DNA of 64,000 nucleotides from Escherichia phage vB_EcoM-Ro157c2YLVW: sequence record NC_050153.1, one strand, 5' to 3'. Made by a program: the position numbers and the translations under genes. A model generated the notes under the pieces. The model was not told the DNA's origin. It did not search any database and was given only the letters and a program-made list of their open reading frames with translations. Below, one piece after another: positions 6,391-36,965 of the stretch (position 1 is the stretch's first letter; every line of letters begins with the position of its first letter).

Positions 6391-7002
6391 TTAATTTCCT
6401 GCTTTCAGTTGCTTAAGACGGCGTTTGAGTTCGCCATTTCGGGCCTTTTCGTTATTGAGTCGGCCTGTCTCCTTATCCAGCTTCGCCCGCAAATCAGTGA
6501 TCTGCTGTTGATTGAAAGACACCGAGTTCTGCGCTGATTTATAAGCGGCAACCACCTGAGCATTCCGCTGTTTTGCCTCTTGCAGGCGCTGAAAGTTGGA
6601 TTTTACTGCCGGTTTCTTGTCTACCGGATTGGCAACACGTTTCGCTTTGGCGATCAGTGATTTCTGGAATTTTGCGGAGTTTTTGCGGGCCGCTTGCCCC
6701 ATGACGGTACCAAGCGTCTTGATATCCGGCGACTGAGCGTTAGGAATAGCTTTTCCATTCAGCCTCACAGACGATATATCGCCAGTATCGTTTACCTGTA
6801 TGGCAAGAATTTGTCCGTCGTTAAGAACCAGCTTTGCGGTTTTAACTTTAACGCCATCTTTCGTTGTTGCGCGGTTGCTGGAGTCAACCTCAATTACCGT
6901 AACACCGGTTTTATTGATCGCCGCGATAAGGGATTTCAGCCCCTTTTCATTAACCTGGTCAAAATCGACCGTTGCATACTTATTTTTCGTCATCTGACAC
7001 AT
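6391..7002 (-). CDS. hdf: Hdf-like protein (homolog of DarA fragment)
   Basis: 203-aa ORF; internal segment ...AARKNSAKFQKSL... is paralogous to DarA residues around ...AEKNSAKFQRAQ... Confidence 0.55.
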   Translation of the reverse strand: MCQMTKNKYATVDFDQVNEKGLKSLIAAINKTGVTVIEVDSSNRATTKDGVKVKTAKLVLNDGQILAIQVNDTGDISSVRLNGKAIPNAQSPDIKTLGTVMGQAARKNSAKFQKSLIAKAKRVANPVDKKPAVKSNFQRLQEAKQRNAQVVAAYKSAQNSVSFNQQQITDLRAKLDKETGRLNNEKARNGELKRRLKQLKAGN

Positions 7003-7423
7003 CCTGTGCGAGATTTATTACGTAACTTCTGCGGATTTGCTGAGTAACAGGGAAAATCCGATACAACGGGTTAATGAACGAGTCGCCATGCGTAACCATG
7101 ACGTTGAAATGCCACAGTCGCTCTCCTTTACCCATATATTCAGTGGGTATGTACAACCATTCACTGTTTTCGCCCTGTTCAGCCGACGTCAAACAACGTT
7201 GTTCGCCTTCAATCACTGTCGTCGGCTTCTGAACATCGCGGATCCAATATCTGACTGTTGCGCCGCGCAAAAACGGGAATTTAGACCGGTATTTGAACGG
7301 CACCCGGATGAAACCCGGTTTAATTTCCACATCACCAAGTTCTAAATGCGTGATGTCCTTGCGTTTTAGCAAATAGCGATCGGCTAAGGCTAACGCAAGA
7401 ACGCATACACCCCAGCCAATCAT
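6980..7423 (-). CDS. LydB-like protein (putative antiholin/lysis regulator)
   Basis: 147-aa ORF immediately downstream of and overlapping the holin gene; position-based call. Confidence 0.45.
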   Translation of the reverse strand: MIGWGVCVLALALADRYLLKRKDITHLELGDVEIKPGFIRVPFKYRSKFPFLRGATVRYWIRDVQKPTTVIEGEQRCLTSAEQGENSEWLYIPTEYMGKGERLWHFNVMVTHGDSFINPLYRIFPVTQQIRRSYVINLAQDVSDDEK

Positions 7424-7749
7424 TTCCCGCCTCCCTTTTTCACCAAACTTGTAAGAACATTCAGAATGCTATCGATATTCACTCGTTTCATCCCTGAAAT
7501 CACCTCATGACCGTTATTGCTGGCTATCGTTACCATTAAGTACGTAATTGATAACTCCCAGCCCTCGTGTTGCCCCAATAGGTACGCCACCGCGCCAGCT
7601 GTCACTGCAACAAAGATCTCCGTAACCAATCCCAACAAATTGCCAGACTGGCGACCGTCTCGGACATCCATCAGGAACGTGCCTATCCCACCAATTACTG
7701 AAAGCAGGAGCGCAATAGCAACTGGAGCTAATTCCTGTGTGTCAAGCAC
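7420..7749 (-). CDS. lydA: holin (LydA-like), three predicted transmembrane segments
   Basis: 109-aa ORF, GTG start with GGAGGG RBS; hydrophobic stretches LAPVAIALLLSVIGGIGTFLM, IFVAVTAGAVAYLLG, LSITYLMVTIA; charged C-terminus. Confidence 0.6.
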   Translation of the reverse strand: MLDTQELAPVAIALLLSVIGGIGTFLMDVRDGRQSGNLLGLVTEIFVAVTAGAVAYLLGQHEGWELSITYLMVTIASNNGHEVISGMKRVNIDSILNVLTSLVKKGGGK

Positions 7750-8018
7750 AAGTTCCCTCCTACGTTGTCAGGAGGTAATGGTATGCAAAGTAACTTCTCA
7801 ACCGGTCATGCAAAGACAACAAGCGGAAAAAGAAAAGCAAAGCCTGCTACAACTCGTCAGGGATAAAACTCAGCTCTGGGACTCACAGTTACGGCTAGGC
7901 ATTATTTCCGTTCAGGGTAAACAAAAATTAACCGAGTGGATTCTCTATGCGCAGAAAGTCGAATCCACGGATACCTCCATCCTTCCAGTAACGTTTCCCG
8001 AAAAGCCGGAATGAGGAA

Positions 8019-8036
8019 AGGCCCGGGATCGGGCCT
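8019..8036. terminator. GC hairpin bounding the AT-rich moron (bidirectional terminator candidate)
   Basis: AGGCCCG-GGAT-CGGGCCT perfect stem, followed by TAATTAAT. Confidence 0.45.
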
Positions 8037-8502
8037 TAATTAATATCTATAATCCCAACAAATAAGGGCTAACAATTTTGTTAATTTTCTCTGGATATAA
8101 TGCATGTGCTTTAATATACCTGAAGTTATATTAAAGAGCGTCATGTAAAAATTAAATAAATCAATTAAATCTATTTTCAATAGACAAATCAAAATTTTTA
8201 ACAGATATGTATAGAAATGGCAAGCCATAAATTAATAATGACATCCTTAATAAGCCCAAAGAAACACTGAATAGATAAAATATAAATTATTGCATCCCAA
8301 AATACAGAAAGTAGTGGCAATCTTGCAACTTATTATCAATACAATATTGACATCCCTTTAGTGCTCAGTTTAAAATTAATATTTGTGTTTACATTGTGCG
8401 TTGGTTTAGTTTAGCAGGAACGCAGTAACACACTGATGCTTATTGTTTTAATTATAATGTCGATATATAACCATAGAAACCAAAAATATAGGCAGTTGCA
8501 AT

Positions 8503-9075
8503 ATGTTATGTTACTTAATAGCTATTCACTTTGTCATCTTTGGGAATTCAAAAGCTCTATTGAGCTATTGGATGGCTGAAGTCATCAGGCGAGAAAAAAT
8601 GGATGTTTGGCGACTATTAAGAGAGAAGAGGCAGCGCAATCGGAATTTCCTTTTCTGGTGGAGATTGGCTAATGAAATGCATATTAATGGTAATAAATTA
8701 CATAAGAAAGCAGCCAAAAAGTTAAACAGTAAAATAATTAACAAATTTGGTTGTGAAATTGGATTGGGCGCAAATATTGGAAAAGGGTTAACAATTCCCC
8801 ATCATGCTGGAATTGTTGTTCATTTTGCTGTTGATGCTGGTGAAAATCTGGTGTTACGACAGAATACGACCATTGGACAGATAGATGGTGACATACCTGG
8901 TTCAAGAGTAAAAATTGGTAGCAACGTTGATATCGGAGCTAATTGTTGCATCATTGGATTATCACGTAAAATTGGGGATAATGTAAAAATAGGTGCAATG
9001 TCTTTTATAAATAAAGATATACCATCGAACTGCACATATATTACTAAAAAGAGCGGTGTTGTATTGTATAAATAG
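8503..9075 (+). CDS. hexapeptide-repeat (left-handed beta-helix) acetyltransferase, CysE/WcaB/LacA-like
   Basis: 190-aa ORF in ~30% GC DNA; repeated [LIV]G-x4 hexapeptides (GLGANIGKGLTIPHHAGIVVHFAVDAGENLVL...IGSNVDIGANCCIIG...IGDNVKIGAMSF). Confidence 0.7.
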   Translation: MLCYLIAIHFVIFGNSKALLSYWMAEVIRREKMDVWRLLREKRQRNRNFLFWWRLANEMHINGNKLHKKAAKKLNSKIINKFGCEIGLGANIGKGLTIPHHAGIVVHFAVDAGENLVLRQNTTIGQIDGDIPGSRVKIGSNVDIGANCCIIGLSRKIGDNVKIGAMSFINKDIPSNCTYITKKSGVVLYK

Positions 9076-30369: not shown

Positions 30370-32076
30370 TTACTCAGAGTCACCGGCATCAATCGTGTCG
30401 CCGCTTATGAAGTTAAGCCCGCCTTTTTTGGCCATTGTCAGCGTTACACGAGTGAAGTAATCAGCGCCGTTGCGTGGGTGCATATCGTTGATAGCCGAAC
30501 CCCACAGTGTGGTACGGTTGACCAGCGCCGGAGTGGTCGGATGCTGGAACGGGATAGCCGGGACAGCATCACCAGTCACGAAGCCTGCTTTACCCGGATT
30601 TTCATCACGGACGTAGCACAGCACATCCATCGAGCTGAACTGAATGTTCTCTGTCGTTAAGTTCTTACAAATACCAGCAGGTACTTCGTACACTTTCACG
30701 TTACCGAACAGGGTACCGATGTAGTGAACATACGGAGTCTGGATATAGTCTTCGGCTGGCTGGAAGAAATCCTTCGGCAACTGTTTGAAGAAAGATGCTG
30801 CATCAGCACCAGCAAACATCCCCATCGCACCAGAAGATTTAACGCGCTCAATAATGTCGCGATATACAGTCTGGAATTTGCCACGAATGATGGTTGCCCA
30901 TACATTAAAGGACTGGTTAACCGGCAGAGCGATGTCAAAGGTGTCGGTCGCAAGAGTACGCCAGATCATGATGCGAAGACGCAGCATATCCTGTTCATGA
31001 GACAGGTATTCCTTCAGGGTGCGGAACTGTAGGGAACCCAGGTCCAGACCAAATTCACGCTGTGCTTCATACGCCGCCTGTACCGTGTGCTCAGCCGCGA
31101 TAACGAACTGACTTGGGAACAGGGTGTATTTCTTCATTTCGTGGTTGATCAGCGGGATCAGCTCAGGTGCGGCTTCAATATTGATTTCCGTCTCAATTGC
31201 GATCTCAGTGCCTTTATCCGGCGCTTTGGAGAACGACAGGGCAATCTGACCAATGTTGTAGTTCAGAGAGCAGGTAACAGTGATTTGCTCACCAGCAGCA
31301 TTAGTAAACGAGTGAAGTAGGCTGCCGGAACCGTTATCAACAACAGACTTAATACGGTTAACGTAGATGTTAGTGCGACCTTTTCGGATTGGTACATTCT
31401 GGCCTTCGAAGTCTTCCATCTTGAAGGTTGCGGTTTTGCTGGTGCCATCGGAGCTTGCCACCAGCACATAGCGGCGACGTAACTGGCTGTACACACCAAC
31501 GGATTGCATGTCCAGAACATCACCAGCAGCATAAGAACCAAAAGAGGAACCTGCCACGTTAAAGACTTCATAGATGTCGGACTGGTCACGCGTAACCGGA
31601 ATGAAGGTACACGCATCAGCGGTAGCTGCCCCCAACTGAACAGGCAGGATCATCGCGAGGAATAAAGGCAGACGCATAACACCGTCAGAAACGCTCATCA
31701 TCTCTGCTGCGACGGATTCCAGCATCGCTTTATTAGTGGCATCCATGCTATTGCGGGTGGACTCAATCAGGCAGTTTTCCAGCGTCTGGTGGCAGGAGGC
31801 CAGAATTTCCGGACGCGGCATAGATTTATGTGCTGCGGCGTAGTCAGCCAGTGCACTTGCCCACGCTGTAGCGATTTGAGCGGTGGCATTATCAGAGATA
31901 CCCGCAAAAACCGGGTCTTTACGTGCAGCTTCAAGGATAGATGCGGCACGCGCGGCATCATCTTTAATGAATTGGTTATCAGTACCGAACTGCGCAGTGC
32001 TTGCCCAGCCAAGCACAGCTTTAGAGCGTTTTGCGATATCTGCAATACGATTCTGGTATTCGCGTAAGTTACTCAA
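30370..32076 (-). CDS. major virion structural protein (major head protein candidate), TTG start
   Basis: No in-frame ATG for ~100 codons; TTG at 32076 sits 6 nt after an AAGGAAGAG RBS. Confidence 0.45.
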   Translation of the reverse strand: MSNLREYQNRIADIAKRSKAVLGWASTAQFGTDNQFIKDDAARAASILEAARKDPVFAGISDNATAQIATAWASALADYAAAHKSMPRPEILASCHQTLENCLIESTRNSMDATNKAMLESVAAEMMSVSDGVMRLPLFLAMILPVQLGAATADACTFIPVTRDQSDIYEVFNVAGSSFGSYAAGDVLDMQSVGVYSQLRRRYVLVASSDGTSKTATFKMEDFEGQNVPIRKGRTNIYVNRIKSVVDNGSGSLLHSFTNAAGEQITVTCSLNYNIGQIALSFSKAPDKGTEIAIETEINIEAAPELIPLINHEMKKYTLFPSQFVIAAEHTVQAAYEAQREFGLDLGSLQFRTLKEYLSHEQDMLRLRIMIWRTLATDTFDIALPVNQSFNVWATIIRGKFQTVYRDIIERVKSSGAMGMFAGADAASFFKQLPKDFFQPAEDYIQTPYVHYIGTLFGNVKVYEVPAGICKNLTTENIQFSSMDVLCYVRDENPGKAGFVTGDAVPAIPFQHPTTPALVNRTTLWGSAINDMHPRNGADYFTRVTLTMAKKGGLNFISGDTIDAGDSE

Positions 32077-32209
32077 TTTACTCTTCCTTAAACACAAGGC
32101 ACTTGTGTGAATCCCTTTTCGGAAGAGATTTTATTGAAAGTCACTTGTTGACTTTCTCGTGACAAGCAATTTTTTTATTTTTTCGGGAGTAGGGGAGGAA
32201 GGTAAAATC

Positions 32210-32300
32210 CAAGGTGAAATCGTGGCGATTTCACCTTGAAATTTTAGATGGATTTACTTTAAAAACAGTAGGTTAATAGTGAAATTTGAATGGCGAAAGT
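32210..32300. promoter_or_regulatory. parS: parS-like partition site
   Basis: Heptamer ATTTCAC boxes in a palindrome GTGAAATCGTGGCGATTTCAC (32214-32234) and a second GTGAAAT...TGGCGA; immediately downstream of parB. Confidence 0.6.
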
Positions 32301-33302
32301 TTAAGGCTTCGGCTTTTTATCGAGGCTCTTTCTAAGGATATGCCCAATCATCCTGTCGAGTTCTTCCTGTAGCTCTTTTGAAAGTCGATTAAACTCATAA
32401 GAAAATGCACGGCCTTTCACGCGCTTCCTTGCAAAGCGATCCTTGTCCTCAAATTTCCATAATTCAGTAACTACGGACTTATCTTTAGAACCTTTATCCG
32501 TGAGTAGTGAGGCTTCCTTTGTTATCAAGCGCAGGATTTTATTTTTAACTTCATCTTCGGCCATTTCTTCAATGGATAAGATGTCGTTTATTTCCGGGGA
32601 TATGTTTTGAATAAGCTGATCAAACTCTAAATTCTTGTTCCCCATTTCGTCGCCAACAGCACAAAGCGTTTTGTAGTCCGAAAAGGTTAATTCCGACTGC
32701 ACAGGGAAAAGGGCGACTAATTCTTCCGGAGCACTCGCTGCCTGGAGAGCACGCGTGACCTTAGCCTGAGACAGCCCTTCTTTGGCTGCAATATCCTTCT
32801 GACTCATCCCATCATTTTTCATTCGCATCAAACGCAGACCTATTTCTCGAATGCTGTGCTGCAATGCTGTCTGAACGTCTTTCGCTAAATTTTGCGCTTC
32901 CTGAACGCTGATCTCCTGGTCCGTGACTAAAACCCGCAACCCTACGTTCTCTAAGATGGCAGAAGCTCGACGCCGGGAACCATCCAAAATTTCAATTTTC
33001 CCTGTACCCCGTCTAACACCTATTGCAGGGTAAAATTGCTGATGCTTAATAGTGCTTCGGATACTTTTTAATGATTTTGGCGTAAGAGATGCCTGGTCAC
33101 GCCCGTTGTTATGCTGATCAACAAAGGTATCGCTTTCTACCTGGTTCGGAGGTATTACCTCTTCAATAAATGTGGCCTGGCGACCAGTTGATAACTTGAA
33201 TACCTGCTCGACTCGATCGCCAGAGGCTGAAGAACTATCAAATCCGCTTAATATTGAAGGATTAAGGGTTCGCCCAATTGTTGGTCTGTTTTTCTTTGAC
33301 AT
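32301..33302 (-). CDS. parB: partition protein ParB (P1 ParB/SopB family)
   Basis: 333-aa ORF; ParB N-terminal box (...KIEILDGSRR...) and HTH (...MSQKDIAAKEGLSQAKVTRAL...). Confidence 0.85.
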   Translation of the reverse strand: MSKKNRPTIGRTLNPSILSGFDSSSASGDRVEQVFKLSTGRQATFIEEVIPPNQVESDTFVDQHNNGRDQASLTPKSLKSIRSTIKHQQFYPAIGVRRGTGKIEILDGSRRRASAILENVGLRVLVTDQEISVQEAQNLAKDVQTALQHSIREIGLRLMRMKNDGMSQKDIAAKEGLSQAKVTRALQAASAPEELVALFPVQSELTFSDYKTLCAVGDEMGNKNLEFDQLIQNISPEINDILSIEEMAEDEVKNKILRLITKEASLLTDKGSKDKSVVTELWKFEDKDRFARKRVKGRAFSYEFNRLSKELQEELDRMIGHILRKSLDKKPKP

Positions 33303-33318
33303 GGGGGTTTCTTACTCC

Positions 33319-34515
33319 TCAGTTAGATCTGATAAATTCAATACGGTCAAAAACTGCTTTAGCAAAATCTTCCGCGGCAATTCGCGCGTTCTTCAATGCA
33401 TCAGCACTACCAACATACGTTGCCGGGTTAGCTGAAATAACAGTGTCAAAAGACTCGCCGCAACGTTCAAAACCGTCAAGGCGAGGGAGGACGACATCGA
33501 GCATATCCCCACCGAACACTTCTTTAGCCAGGCTATGGCAATACTTATGATCTGCCTTGTTACTCAACTTGGACATAAAACCAATGTTAGTCGCAAGCTG
33601 GCACTCGCAGCCTTCATCCGAAATGAGTTTCACCAACTCAGGAAGGCGGGCAACGTATTTAAGCGATGAGTGGAAATCGACAGTTGCTGGCGGCAGAGGT
33701 GTAAACAGTATATTGGCCGAGGCCAAAGCATTTTTCAGGAAGGCGTCAAGGTGAGGACCACTATCAACGAGGATAAAGTCATAATCGCTCTTCAGCTTAT
33801 CAATCACATTTTCTTTCAGGACAGCATGGATGTTCTGACCCGGTAGATGCTCATTGCACAGCTCTCTCCAATCGGATGCAATAAAGGCATCGTCAATCGA
33901 CGCAGGCATAACGTCAACCCCAGGTACAACAGAAGGAACAATAAACTCCTCTAACAGCTCTTCACGGCTTACATTCTGCAACATAGCCTGTGCAGATGTT
34001 GCGTTTACGATACCAATAGAGTGTTTATGGCTTAAAAACATCGTTGCTGAAGATTGCGGATCAAGGTCAATAACCAGAATCCTTAAATCTTCCATCAGAA
34101 GATGAGGGTGAGCACGCATTGCATGCGCCAGAGAAACCGTCGATACAGTTTTTGACACACCGCCTTTAAGATTGGAGATGAAAATCACATACGCTTCGCT
34201 GTAGCGATCCCGGTATTTTGGCACTCCGCGATGTTCATATATGTCAATGATGTTCTGAATTGACATCGCATATTTCATTGAAGAGCCAGCAGGGCGTTTA
34301 TCGAAAACATAACCCTTTTCTTCCATTTCACTTACGGCATAGTCAACGTTCGCTCGAGTCAGTAGAGGCAATTTTGCCAGTGCCGCTTTCGCATAGACCT
34401 GGTAAAACTCGTTCGCGTGTAGCTCATCCTTTTGCAACTGTACTTGTTCAGTCAGAACATTGAGCATTCTGTTTGCTCTTTGAGCAACCTTGTGAAGCTG
34501 GCTGGAATCACTCAT
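33319..34515 (-). CDS. parA: partition ATPase ParA (type Ia, long N-terminal HTH form)
   Basis: 398-aa ORF; deviant Walker A NLKGGVSKTVSTVSLA; LVIDLDPQSS; FILVDSGP. Confidence 0.85.
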   Translation of the reverse strand: MSDSSQLHKVAQRANRMLNVLTEQVQLQKDELHANEFYQVYAKAALAKLPLLTRANVDYAVSEMEEKGYVFDKRPAGSSMKYAMSIQNIIDIYEHRGVPKYRDRYSEAYVIFISNLKGGVSKTVSTVSLAHAMRAHPHLLMEDLRILVIDLDPQSSATMFLSHKHSIGIVNATSAQAMLQNVSREELLEEFIVPSVVPGVDVMPASIDDAFIASDWRELCNEHLPGQNIHAVLKENVIDKLKSDYDFILVDSGPHLDAFLKNALASANILFTPLPPATVDFHSSLKYVARLPELVKLISDEGCECQLATNIGFMSKLSNKADHKYCHSLAKEVFGGDMLDVVLPRLDGFERCGESFDTVISANPATYVGSADALKNARIAAEDFAKAVFDRIEFIRSN

Positions 34516-34651
34516 CGAAAGTCATCCTTTATGCTGTATTTTTGAATTTAATTAAAAATGCTGCATAAAATAATAATGTATGCGTAGATGCTTGTACATG
34601 GCATTCTCTGCATGTTTTGTTCATTTTGCACGATTGAGAGTTACAAGAAAG

Positions 34652-34676
34652 GCACAAAAAAGCCCCGTTCAGGGGC
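34652..34676 (-). terminator. rho-independent terminator after the T5orf172 gene
   Basis: Minus-strand GCCCC-TGAAC-GGGGC followed by TTTTTTGTG. Confidence 0.6.
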
Positions 34677-34683
34677 ATCAGTG

Positions 34684-35493
34684 TTATTTGCTAAGAGCAG
34701 CGAATAATCGTTCGAAATCGATAGTATCTATAGCACGCGTAAGCGCCGGAAGTTCAGCCTCAAAGTACCCGTGTCGATCGTAAAAGAAGGGACCGAAGAG
34801 CGAGGCATGTTGGATTCTACTTCGCCCCAGCCCGGACACACAGTTAAGCCCATTACCGGCTAAAAGGCTAAAAAACTTCTCTGGATTATCGTGGTAAAGC
34901 TGAGAATCAATGGTGGCGGTTAACTCTTCCATAGGGAAGCACACCCGCCCTGTCTCCCAGGGATATTTAGTCCGAAGCATAAACATTGCTTTCAGCAATT
35001 CACATTGAGCGTGGATCGCGTCCGGTTCATAGCCAGATATGGAGACATAAGCCACGTCCCTCATTCCTGCGTCATCTTTGAAAGTCACGATAGAAGTAAC
35101 ATCCAGCTCTTTTTCGAAAGAGCAAGCAGCATCTACTGGACGCTGAAGTAAATCATTCGACTTAATGCGCTTGAGAATCCCTCCCCACATATCATTTAGA
35201 TATTCGATATGAGCCAAAACCTTATCAAGACACTCTCGTGTAAACCATTCAGTATGCCCGCCACCGGCGCTTTTCTCCCACGGCGCATTCCAAGGGAAAA
35301 AGGTTGCGTGTAAAGCCCGCTCAAGATTAACCATTGCCAAACGCGTACCACGATAGACCCGTGAAAGCGCAAAATCGGGACTCACTTGTAGCCCTTTAAA
35401 CCGTGCCAATGGACCACATGAAATGCCGATTTTAAAAGTATCTCCGTTCTCTGGCACCAGAACGTAGAGGTAGTGTTGTTTCTCTTCTTGCAT
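34684..35493 (-). CDS. T5orf172 (GIY-YIG-like) domain protein with uncharacterised C-terminal domain
   Basis: 269-aa ORF; N-terminus HYLYVLVPENGDTFKIGIS...RFKGLQV...ERALHATFF...GGHTEWF matches the T5orf172 pattern (Y-x-Y...KIG...R...E..LH...TEWF). Confidence 0.6.
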   Translation of the reverse strand: MQEEKQHYLYVLVPENGDTFKIGISCGPLARFKGLQVSPDFALSRVYRGTRLAMVNLERALHATFFPWNAPWEKSAGGGHTEWFTRECLDKVLAHIEYLNDMWGGILKRIKSNDLLQRPVDAACSFEKELDVTSIVTFKDDAGMRDVAYVSISGYEPDAIHAQCELLKAMFMLRTKYPWETGRVCFPMEELTATIDSQLYHDNPEKFFSLLAGNGLNCVSGLGRSRIQHASLFGPFFYDRHGYFEAELPALTRAIDTIDFERLFAALSK

Positions 35494-35527
35494 ATCAATA
35501 CCACTGCTTGATGAGAACCGCGCAAAT

Positions 35528-35785
35528 GTTGACTATGCGCGAAGGTTAATGTGAATAGTTGACTATGCGCGATGTGACTACAGTCAAAAGTTGACTGTAG
35601 TCGATTTAACTCCACCAAAGATCGACTATGTAAGATATTGTCGGGAGAAACGTTGACTATACGCGATGAAATGACCCTAAAAGCCATCTCAATAGCGACT
35701 TGCAGAATATTGACGCCAGCAAAAATCCACCAGCGTCAACGAATGTCGCCTATAGTCAACTTCTCGCTATCGCATATAGTCAATA
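35528..35785. repeat. incA-like iteron array (RepA-binding copy-control locus)
   Basis: At least 8 copies of a ~15-19-bp iteron with core GTTGACTATGCGCGA / TCGCATATAGTCAA in both orientations. Confidence 0.7.
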
Positions 35786-36670
35786 TTATGGATTGCGCTT
35801 ATGGATCTGGAAGCCGATTTTCCTGCCGTTTTTTATCTCTGAAAATTTAAGATATTCAATAGATTCCAAATCTTTCATGGCTTTTCTGATAACGCTATTT
35901 TGCACGCTAACGGATGATTTGAGATTAAGCCTCGCTCTAAGGCGCTCAATGCTGACAGGTGCAGGGTTGGCGGGTAGAGCCTCAAAGAATGTATACAGTA
36001 CCTTGGCCGTCTCTTTGCGCCCGAGCTTATCCAGCATCTTCAGCTTCAGGATTCGCTTATAGTCAACATAGTAAAGTTCAGATAGCTGTTTCTGCGGCTG
36101 GATCTCAATAACATCAAGCTCGGTATTCAGGCTGCTATATGCCAACAAGTTGACGTTAATGTTATTGAGATGACCTTTTGCCGCCGGGAAGCGGAATTTG
36201 ACAACTGTCTGCTGAATGCGTGTCAGAGAGTCATCAATACTTTTACGGAACGCCTTTGAAAGGCGCTTACGTGGATAGCCGCATCGATCGGCAAACTCGG
36301 AGAATGGCAGGGTGATGATACCGTCATCATCAGGTGCGTAGTCAAACAACGCGGAGGTTATGCCCACCCACACCTTAAAATCAGTATCCATATCCAGGCG
36401 TGGACCATGAATTTCAATTCCCTCATAGCCTTCCTGCTCAACAATTTTGAGGCTTGATAGTTCTTCGGTTGCGTTCGTTGTGTTTGTAGTAACTGACGAT
36501 CCGCGACGTAGTGCCACATTGGTAGATTTTAAGGTTGGCACAAACACACCTAAGCGCAACAAAGCAATGGGTTGTATAGTGCTATTGTTATTGGGTTTCA
36601 GGCTGTGGATTTCTCCTGTATTTCCTGCAACTTCTTCAACGCTAAGGAAGCCTTTATTTTCTTCCAGCAT
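35786..36670 (-). CDS. repA: plasmid replication initiator RepA (iteron-binding)
   Basis: RepA-like sequence (...GPRLDMDTDFKVWVGI...); start assigned to the ATG at 36670 with GGAG RBS (track ORF extends to 36727); flanked by iterons on both sides. Confidence 0.8.
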   Translation of the reverse strand: MLEENKGFLSVEEVAGNTGEIHSLKPNNNSTIQPIALLRLGVFVPTLKSTNVALRRGSSVTTNTTNATEELSSLKIVEQEGYEGIEIHGPRLDMDTDFKVWVGITSALFDYAPDDDGIITLPFSEFADRCGYPRKRLSKAFRKSIDDSLTRIQQTVVKFRFPAAKGHLNNINVNLLAYSSLNTELDVIEIQPQKQLSELYYVDYKRILKLKMLDKLGRKETAKVLYTFFEALPANPAPVSIERLRARLNLKSSVSVQNSVIRKAMKDLESIEYLKFSEIKNGRKIGFQIHKRNP

Positions 36671-36747
36671 CGTGGTTTCTCCATATGTGGCGCGGCCTGG
36701 CGTCATCTGGATTGCAGTTATCAACAACTGTGAATAGTCAGGCTCTA

Positions 36748-36851
36748 AAATCGCGTACAGTCAATGTTTCTGTCGCATATAGTCAACAATAAATCGCGTG
36801 CAGTCAACAATAAATCGTGCACAGTCAACATAAAATCGCGTATAGTCAATG
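36748..36851. repeat. incC-like iteron array (5 direct repeats) in the repA promoter/origin
   Basis: Five ~19-bp repeats AAATCGCGTACAGTCAATG / TGTCGCATATAGTCAACAA / AAATCGCGTGCAGTCAACAA / AAATCGTGCACAGTCAACAT / AAATCGCGTATAGTCAATGT. Confidence 0.75.
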
Positions 36852-36859
36852 TTGATCCC

Positions 36860-36965
36860 ATTTCAGGCCAGAAATGGCGCGGCTTACAGCGATCCGGGAT
36901 CTTCTTTGGATCTTCCTGGGTTCTCTTTAGGATCTGTTTATTGGATCTATGCTGTGGATAAGTTG
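36860..36965. other. plasmid origin (oriR-like): GATC cluster and DnaA box
   Basis: Five GATC sites within ~70 bp (36890-36947) and a perfect DnaA box TTATCCACA (complement of 36953-36961). Confidence 0.65.

Follow-up and report, generated by a model that had tools for sequence, protein, structure and literature searches.

Among the putative homing endonucleases of ICP1-like phages, T5orf172 genes are the dominant kind and 'occupy boundaries of genetic exchange' (PMC10448857). Odn (ICP1 Gp88) combines a T5orf172 domain with a RepA_N domain taken over from the target (42% identity to the RepA of that target) and cleaves the iteron origin of the target, thereby selecting for the swapping of replicon modules (PMC8263062), and CapR, a PLE-encoded domesticated relative of the T5orf172 homing endonucleases, acts as a repressor (PMC10448857). 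We describe here a T5orf172 gene, hereafter gene X, located in the replicon of a P1-like phage-plasmid, Escherichia phage vB_EcoM-Ro157c2YLVW (NC_050153.1), of which a stretch of 64,000 nucleotides (the window) was analysed. This phage-plasmid is of the SJ46/RCS47/JL22 type (98.6–99.1% identity over 4.5 kb). P1 serves as the textbook example of an iteron plasmid and as the prototype of phage-plasmids, and P1-like elements now spread extended-spectrum beta-lactamase (ESBL) and mcr genes. X has already been annotated and its presence noted, and the literature searched contained no paper addressing its function, the gene product being called merely an 'unknown protein' (PMC9603915). Our comparisons add the conserved slot occupied by X and its place at a cassette boundary, the apparent exception made by P1, and a second domain that, in its predicted fold, resembles the WH1 domain of Rep initiators.

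Gene X (34684..35493, minus strand) is, by nucleotide comparison with P1, the terminal gene of a replicon cassette that replaced the IncY replicon of P1 as a unit. With blastn, the window is homologous to P1 from 31001 to 34617 on the par side (99.3% identity) and again from 36867 onwards on the oriR/upfA side (92.7%), and the 2.25 kb between these blocks (34618..36866, minus strand), comprising the incC iterons, repA, the incA iterons, X and a terminator, are not homologous. RepA shares only 41% identity with that of P1, whereas ParA and ParB are 100% identical to their P1 counterparts. The cassette edge lies 66 bp past the X stop codon, and the homology broke at the same position, 34617, in all 15 IncY-type plasmids among the matches listed. 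X is thus found between repA/incA and the par promoter, Ppar, at the edge of genetic exchange. A first-pass annotation of the window, made from its sequence alone, stated that the incA iterons of P1 directly precede the parA promoter; a gene-free spacer of 213 bp in fact separates the last iteron from Ppar in canonical P1, and no remnant of X was found in this spacer.

Three further alleles of X, 44%, 26% and 26% identical to that of the window, were identified, each between repA and parA: P0004 in locus L002, P0010 in loci L003 and L004 (NCBI assembly GCA_007478465.1), and P0011 in locus L005, which has another par system. The window and L002 share 83% identity in RepA, 44% in X and 89% in ParA, the corresponding values for the window and L003 being 40%, 26% and 90%, and those for L003 and L005 being 41%, 39% and 57%. 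L003 and P1, which lacks X, share 83% identity in RepA and 89% in ParA. L002 (6828-9019; ERR2144811) and L003 (6653-8944; SRR6505940 / GCA_007478465.1) have a single backbone, with 96–99% nucleotide identity, 100% identity in ParA and 98% in ParB. They differ only by their cassettes, p0111-like in L002 and IncY-like in L003, each with its own X allele, and the two cassettes coincide in their boundaries, on the left at oriR/incC and on the right immediately before Ppar, the right edge being ~80 bp past the X stop codon. Since the window/P1 and L002/L003 pairs show the same boundaries, at least two exchanges of the cassette have taken place, on independent backbones, with X always as the right-end gene. 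L005 (6140-8307) encodes a ParA of 401 aa (57% identical) and a ParB of 321 aa (42% identical) and has a third type of iteron (GCTACTG...); as it carries X with a different partition system, X stays with repA across a change of par type. The GC content of X tracks that of repA, not that of parA, in every lineage.

The L003 cassette has iterons of the P1 type, GATGTGTGCTGGAGGGA, and an IncY-like RepA, yet X stands in the place of the P1 spacer (L003 7977-8993, compared with the reverse complement of P1, L001, 2013-2225). To judge from these sequences, canonical P1 therefore looks like an exception among P1-type cassettes in its absence of X. P0010- and P0011-type alleles were absent from PLSDB and are known from assemblies only, and no diverged X allele was found in the INPHARED phage collection.

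X was present at ≥90% identity in 401 PLSDB records, the repA type of the window at ≥95% identity in ~395, and the P1-type capsid gene at ≥90% identity in ~775. A query with the junction gave a bimodal result: 388 PLSDB records contained the complete parA-X-incA-repA junction and, save for a few partial or rearranged cases, the other records matched only as far as window position 34617 (IncY). No class of X-less p0111 cassettes was recovered by this query. X is thus linked at a ratio of ~1:1 to this repA type and, in the plasmids sampled, appears essentially fixed in the p0111 lineage. By the first-pass annotation, universal presence of the gene at this position in the P1 family would speak against its reading, and such presence holds in part: X is present in several diverged cassettes and in ~400 of the ~775 P1-like plasmids, or about half, and absent from P1/IncY proper. 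Among the 1.84 billion representative proteins searched, full-length relatives of X were confined to other P1-like elements.

The first-pass annotation also took X for a recently acquired gene inserted between incA and the par operon. The absence of X from canonical P1 and the terminator that follows the gene might suggest such a lone passenger, but the difference from P1 is the entire 2.25-kb cassette, linkage with the repA type is ~1:1 with no X-less class beside the 388 junctions, four diverged alleles occupy the same slot, one of them in a cassette with a RepA 83% identical to that of P1, the GC content of X equals that of repA in each lineage, no promoter proper to X is predicted (see below) and the P1 spacer is devoid of X remnants. 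We therefore conclude that X was not inserted alone, and consider a recent solitary insertion to be highly improbable.

X encodes a protein of 269 aa from an ATG start codon. The open reading frame (ORF) gives a full-length match to PHROG 2876, a family of function unknown (E value 5.6e-193), and is named 'GIY-YIG nuclease family protein' in RefSeq and gp57 in JL22. It is a real gene under selection, not a chance frame, because it is found in ~400 plasmids (≥90% identity) with a ratio of nonsynonymous to synonymous polymorphism (pN/pS) of 0.33. The description given by the first-pass annotation, of a gene with its own terminator lying between the incA iterons and the par operon, absent from canonical P1 and with a T5orf172/GIY-YIG-like N-terminus and an unassigned C-terminal domain, was confirmed on each of these points, with repA and Ppar as the neighbours of the gene. 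The N-terminal domain (aa 1-100; 35194..35493, minus strand) has a T5orf172 nuclease-type fold: residues 8-85 match the hidden Markov model of Pfam T5orf172 (PF10544, GIY-YIG clan) with an E value of 4.7e-6 and 27.5 bits (cut-off 20), as do 39 of 42 relatives of X, and the motifs YLYVLV, KIGIS, R31, ERALH and GGHTEWF singled out earlier are all present. The T5orf172 signature is complete (Y10, K21-I22-G23, R31, E58, H62, E82-W83-F84), with G23, R31, E58, E82, W83 and F84 invariant in the alignment of the 42-sequence family and Y10, K21 and H62 near-invariant. AlphaFold2 (AF2) run from this alignment gave a model with a predicted local distance difference test score (pLDDT) of 84.2 (a single-sequence run, with a pLDDT of 40, was of no use). 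In this model, a GIY-YIG-type alpha/beta fold is predicted for the N-terminal domain, in agreement with the first-pass annotation, and the BFVD structure matches of the domain are T5orf172 phage proteins. The N-terminal domain is thus a putative nuclease that keeps all the family-invariant residues, and the invariance of the putative catalytic residues across the family argues for retained enzymatic activity.

The two domains evolve at different rates. Between the window and L002, the N-terminal domain is 64% identical and the C-terminal domain 31%, the latter being only 15–18% identical to those of the other two alleles. The blastn homology between these two loci spans repA and incA, continues into X for its first ~104 codons, is gone across the C-terminal domain and is back at Ppar. 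The number of nonsynonymous substitutions per site (dN) for this pair was 0.13 for repA, 0.29 for the N-terminal and 0.68 for the C-terminal domain of X, 0.07 for parA and 0.26 for parB; between lineages, only dN is reported because synonymous substitutions (dS) are saturated and dN/dS is unusable. Within the window lineage (50 sequences), pN/pS was 0.33 for X, 0.02 for repA, 0.00 for parA and 0.06 for parB, indicating that X is under weak purifying selection.

Decay of X was counted on 45 further whole loci (44 from IMG/VR and one from GTDB). X was intact in 36 of them, interrupted by premature stops in seven, rearranged in one and cut by the contig end in one; no internal stops were found in repA, parA or parB of the same loci. 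Three independent nonsense alleles were recognized, at codon 68 in one locus (L059), codon 112 in five (L044–L048) and codon 228 in SJ46 (L014/L042), a reference phage in which the coding sequence of X is annotated as a shortened 227-aa protein, and in one plasmid an IS91 insertion lies within X (L021; NZ_CP080123.1, pPK8217-139kb; locus ~6874-9000). X, of which these three nonsense alleles and the insertion occur naturally, is thus a functional gene that is weakly constrained and dispensable for maintenance. It does not qualify as a core maintenance gene of the P1 family, being absent from P1, having natural stops and showing a pN/pS of 0.33. Degenerate copies of this kind are a feature shared with homing endonuclease genes. 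The 'truncated' clusters P0002 and P0003, with hundreds of members, gave an impression of widespread decay; P0003 is a contig-end artefact and was not counted. In L021, more copies of IS91 flank repA, suggesting an insertion sequence-mediated rearrangement around the replicon, and the E. coli plasmid protein ABN773_26325 (P0005) is a 197-aa chimera of an unrelated 78-aa N-terminus and X residues 105-223, indicating a rearrangement inside X.

The last iteron ends ~25–40 bp before the X start codon in all four lineages (~30 bp in the window). In the repA-X interval of the window, neither a sigma-70-like promoter (≥9/12 matches) nor a terminator was predicted. Relaxed promoter scans upstream of X in the four lineages yielded only 8–9/12 matches that were not conserved between lineages, and none of the four has a predicted terminator in this interval. 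The self-contained transcription unit proposed by the first-pass annotation was therefore not borne out on its promoter side, although its terminator stands: the X stop codon is directly followed by a GCCCC-tgaac-GGGGC hairpin and a T-run (34652..34676, minus strand; stem 34676-34662, end of the T-run at 34652; fold energy of the hairpin RNA -14.1 kcal/mol, z -2.4), at the right end of the cassette. The simplest reading is that X is co-transcribed with the autoregulated repA or is expressed from an iteron-embedded promoter. Each of the five X-proximal incA iterons also contains a −35-like TTGACT hexamer on the plus strand, facing the 3' end of repA, such that antisense transcription is conceivable; no −10 element paired with these hexamers (35524-35666, plus strand) passed the promoter scan.

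The C-terminal domain (aa 101-269; 34687..35193, minus strand) is fast-evolving and acidic (isoelectric point, pI, 5.2), and its predicted fold includes a winged helix. No match to this region (aa ~100-269) was obtained in Pfam, NCBIfam or PADLOC, a Pfam run on all 42 relatives also gave no meaningful match, and profile searches against the PDB returned neither a meaningful match nor any known DNA-binding family. With Foldseek, 6h24 ranked first among the matches to the X model (E value 0.033, probability 0.92), ahead of RctB, a large number of RepE54 entries and 1hkq, all with E values no lower than 1e-3; lower in the list of structure matches came the pi initiator (2nra, 3.4) and numerous winged helices of ORC/Cdc6 proteins. 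Individual scores are modest, but the clustering of initiators at the top of two methods is unlikely to be due to chance because such chains make up a tiny fraction of the PDB library. The predicted fold of the C-terminal domain therefore most resembles the WH1 domains of iteron-binding Rep initiators; since the structure tools give no aligned ranges, we infer that the Rep-like matches belong to this domain.

Taken with the cassette pattern, these features lead us to suggest that X is most likely a site-specific endonuclease with a selfish or competitive role, of the homing endonuclease/Odn kind, acting in conflicts between related replicons, a reading to which we assign a probability of about 0.4. 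The plasmid-competition nuclease mentioned as a possibility by the first-pass annotation fits this model. Expression of X would rely on read-through of repA transcripts across incA or on a promoter embedded in the iterons, such that the level of X would be set by RepA occupancy. The C-terminal domain would steer the protein, directly or through contact with RepA, to related P1-type elements having a different cassette or one without X, and the nuclease domain would cut the DNA of the rival. The break might then eliminate the rival, or its repair from the X-bearing element, through the conserved oriR and par flanks, might copy the whole cassette, which would explain the sharp recurrent cassette boundaries beside X. 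The fast evolution, dispensability and partial decay of X are as expected for homing endonuclease-like genes, and X is present in the IncY-like cassette of L003 but absent from P1/IncY, which is thus a candidate empty allele, while X is fixed in the p0111 lineage.

A more specific form of this proposal, which we regard as tentative and rather doubtful, is that X is a nuclease directed to the origin or to RepA, consisting of a T5orf172 domain and a domain derived from Rep_3 WH1, and serving as a weapon of the cassette against sibling phage-plasmids that share its partition system and backbone, thereby driving whole-replicon replacement. If so, both the split between IncY and p0111 and the occurrence of the same cassette breakpoints in independent P1-like backbones would be accounted for, and X would be the first Odn-like system in a plasmid replicon, a homing unit with an entire replicon as cargo.

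Several observations weigh against a selfish site-specific endonuclease. With hhalign, the four C-terminal domains aligned to five RepA proteins of P1-like cassettes with a probability of 0.2%, and X to RepA, ParA and ParB of P1-like elements with a probability of <1%, i.e., without similarity. The pI of the C-terminal domain is 5.0–5.2 in all four alleles, versus 9.3 for RepA, which is unusual for sequence-specific DNA binding. Fixation in the p0111 lineage means that no empty homing site is present there today, and X does not have the sporadic presence of classical homing endonuclease genes. Its pN/pS points to some constraint at the level of the host or the element, and the distant members of the family are not adjacent to rep genes.

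Some of these features would suit a different role for X, that of a domesticated, non-cutting accessory of replication control, the C-terminal domain binding RepA (as a WH1-WH1 heterodimer) or iteron complexes and tuning initiation, handcuffing or incompatibility. The strict linkage to repA and the GC content co-varying with it, the position of X directly after the last incA iteron without a predicted promoter of its own, and a C-terminal domain that is acidic, as would suit protein-protein contact better than DNA binding, and whose predicted fold is nearest to WH1, which is also the dimerisation domain of Rep, are all in keeping with it, and CapR provides a precedent for a domesticated T5orf172 protein turned repressor (PMC10448857). 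However, the family shows no variation at the putative catalytic residues, stable replication without X is the case in P1 and in about half of the P1-like plasmids, natural nonsense and IS-disrupted alleles persist, and the C-terminal domain diverges five times faster than RepA, a poor fit to an interface with a conserved partner. We therefore consider a regulatory role unlikely.

The X family is broadly carried by mobile elements, the contexts of its distant members showing no recurring partner gene and no recurring association with rep. Distant members of ~270–300 aa, with a T5orf172 N-terminal domain and a variable C-terminal domain, were seen at L006, L007, L017 and L018: one lies on a phage-like contig next to a helix-turn-helix repressor and HigBA-like genes, one in a chromosomal island that also has Mrr_cat and WYL genes, one on a relaxase/TrbM plasmid and one on a contig with GmrSD_N. 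The first-pass annotation also raised an anti-phage role, in which X would be a single-gene defence nuclease carried by the phage-plasmid for its host. The member near Mrr_cat and WYL on a chromosome could be cited for it, and conflict genes, like X, typically evolve fast and are dispensable. Nevertheless, no PADLOC-DB v2 family was matched at an E value ≤1, X is in P1-like elements always part of the replicon cassette and never of a region of variable cargo or defence genes, most of the distant relatives come from plasmid- or phage-like contigs with no defence genes nearby, and no sensor or regulator partner is apparent. A defence function is thus not supported, and we think it improbable.

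The other features of the locus follow the P1 plan. The gene repA (35786..36670, minus strand) encodes a Rep_3-family initiator of 294 aa (RefSeq start) of the 'p0111' type (PMC9603915). The incA-like array (35524..35787) contains seven iterons, five X-proximal copies at 35524-35666 (spacing ~31 bp; plus-strand sequence GTTGACTATGCGCGA) and, in inverted orientation, two more at 35744-35787, and the incC-like origin iterons (36746..36853), at the left end of the cassette, are five copies with mostly 21-bp spacing. A lone iteron-like sequence, ATTCGCTTATAGTCAAC, with an 82% match to the incA copies, lies outside both arrays, at 36051-36067 in the repA coding region. Past the cassette, Ppar (34570..34598, minus strand; TGTACA-17-TATTAT) is found within the first 50 bp of P1-identical sequence, upstream of the parA-parB block (32301..34515, minus strand), in which parA occupies 34515-33319 and parB 33302-32301.

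Some database records for these genes are problematic. X is labelled 'terminase small subunit' in the record of phage phi456, and three records titled 'phage P1 / Punavirus P1' in fact have a p0111-type cassette with X left unannotated (records concerned: OR339795.1; MH422554.1, MH445380.1, MH445381.1). RepA is called 'replication helicase' in NC_031129 and NC_042128, and the replicon is typed as 'IncHI1B' by MOB-suite (PLSDB; L009–L016, L021) but as p0111 in PlasmidFinder and the literature (PMC9603915).

About half of the P1-like elements, those of the 'p0111' type, thus carry X at the heart of their maintenance region, where it marks the edge of a replicon cassette swapped at least twice between near-identical backbones. 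A competitive endonuclease at this edge would offer a testable mechanism for the replacement of replicon types, for competition between close phage-plasmids and for the diversification of T5orf172 proteins outside lytic phages. Should the Rep-WH1-like targeting domain prove real, the principle of Odn, an initiator-like domain guiding a nuclease, would extend from phage-satellite to plasmid-plasmid conflict.

Among the known systems, Slx1, the eukaryotic GIY-YIG/URI structure-specific endonuclease, has a RING/PHD finger and needs Slx4, and shows no relation to X in context or second domain. Canonical P1 (oriR-repA-incA-parA-parB-parS, IncY) has the same gene order as the window, a Rep_3-type initiator between two iteron arrays and identical ParA and ParB proteins, and shares with it the part of oriR containing the DnaA boxes and Dam sites (92.7%), but its iterons are unrelated to those of the window. 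CapR is, like X, a relative of T5orf172 homing endonucleases on a mobile element, and it has been recruited to a non-homing role, as X would be in the regulatory reading, but it works through a Zn-finger DNA-binding domain, which X lacks, whereas X keeps the invariant T5orf172 residues. Free-standing T5orf172/GIY-YIG homing endonucleases (the putative ones of ICP1, the T4 Seg proteins and the I-TevI architecture) consist of a nuclease and a variable targeting domain in ~250–300 aa, as X putatively does, and their genes, like X, are intergenic between essential genes, at a recurrent boundary of exchange, with occasional nonsense or IS-disrupted copies and a fast-evolving non-catalytic domain. 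X differs from them in the absence of a Zn-finger (CapR, DUF723, DUF4397) or other recognised DNA-binding module, and in being fixed (~390/390 p0111-type junctions) and under weak purifying selection, with no empty target allele known for that of the window. Odn, by contrast, comes from a lytic phage, whereas X lies inside a plasmid replicon beside its own repA and iterons; the order of the domains is reversed, the nuclease being N-terminal in X, and the RepA_N targeting domain of Odn has as its counterpart an acidic domain that is Rep_3 WH1-like by predicted fold, without sequence similarity to any Rep. Nevertheless, in Odn and in the Odn-like T5orf172 + RepA_N nucleases of coliphages Inny, Muut and Mt1B1_P17 (PMC8263062, PMC10448857), a nuclease is likewise joined to an initiator-related domain, a likeness that for X would hold at the level of the predicted fold. 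The catalytic glutamate E180 of Odn corresponds to E82 of X in the family alignment, and the two would share their setting, a conflict between related or parasitic replicons accompanied by replicon-module swapping in the elements affected.

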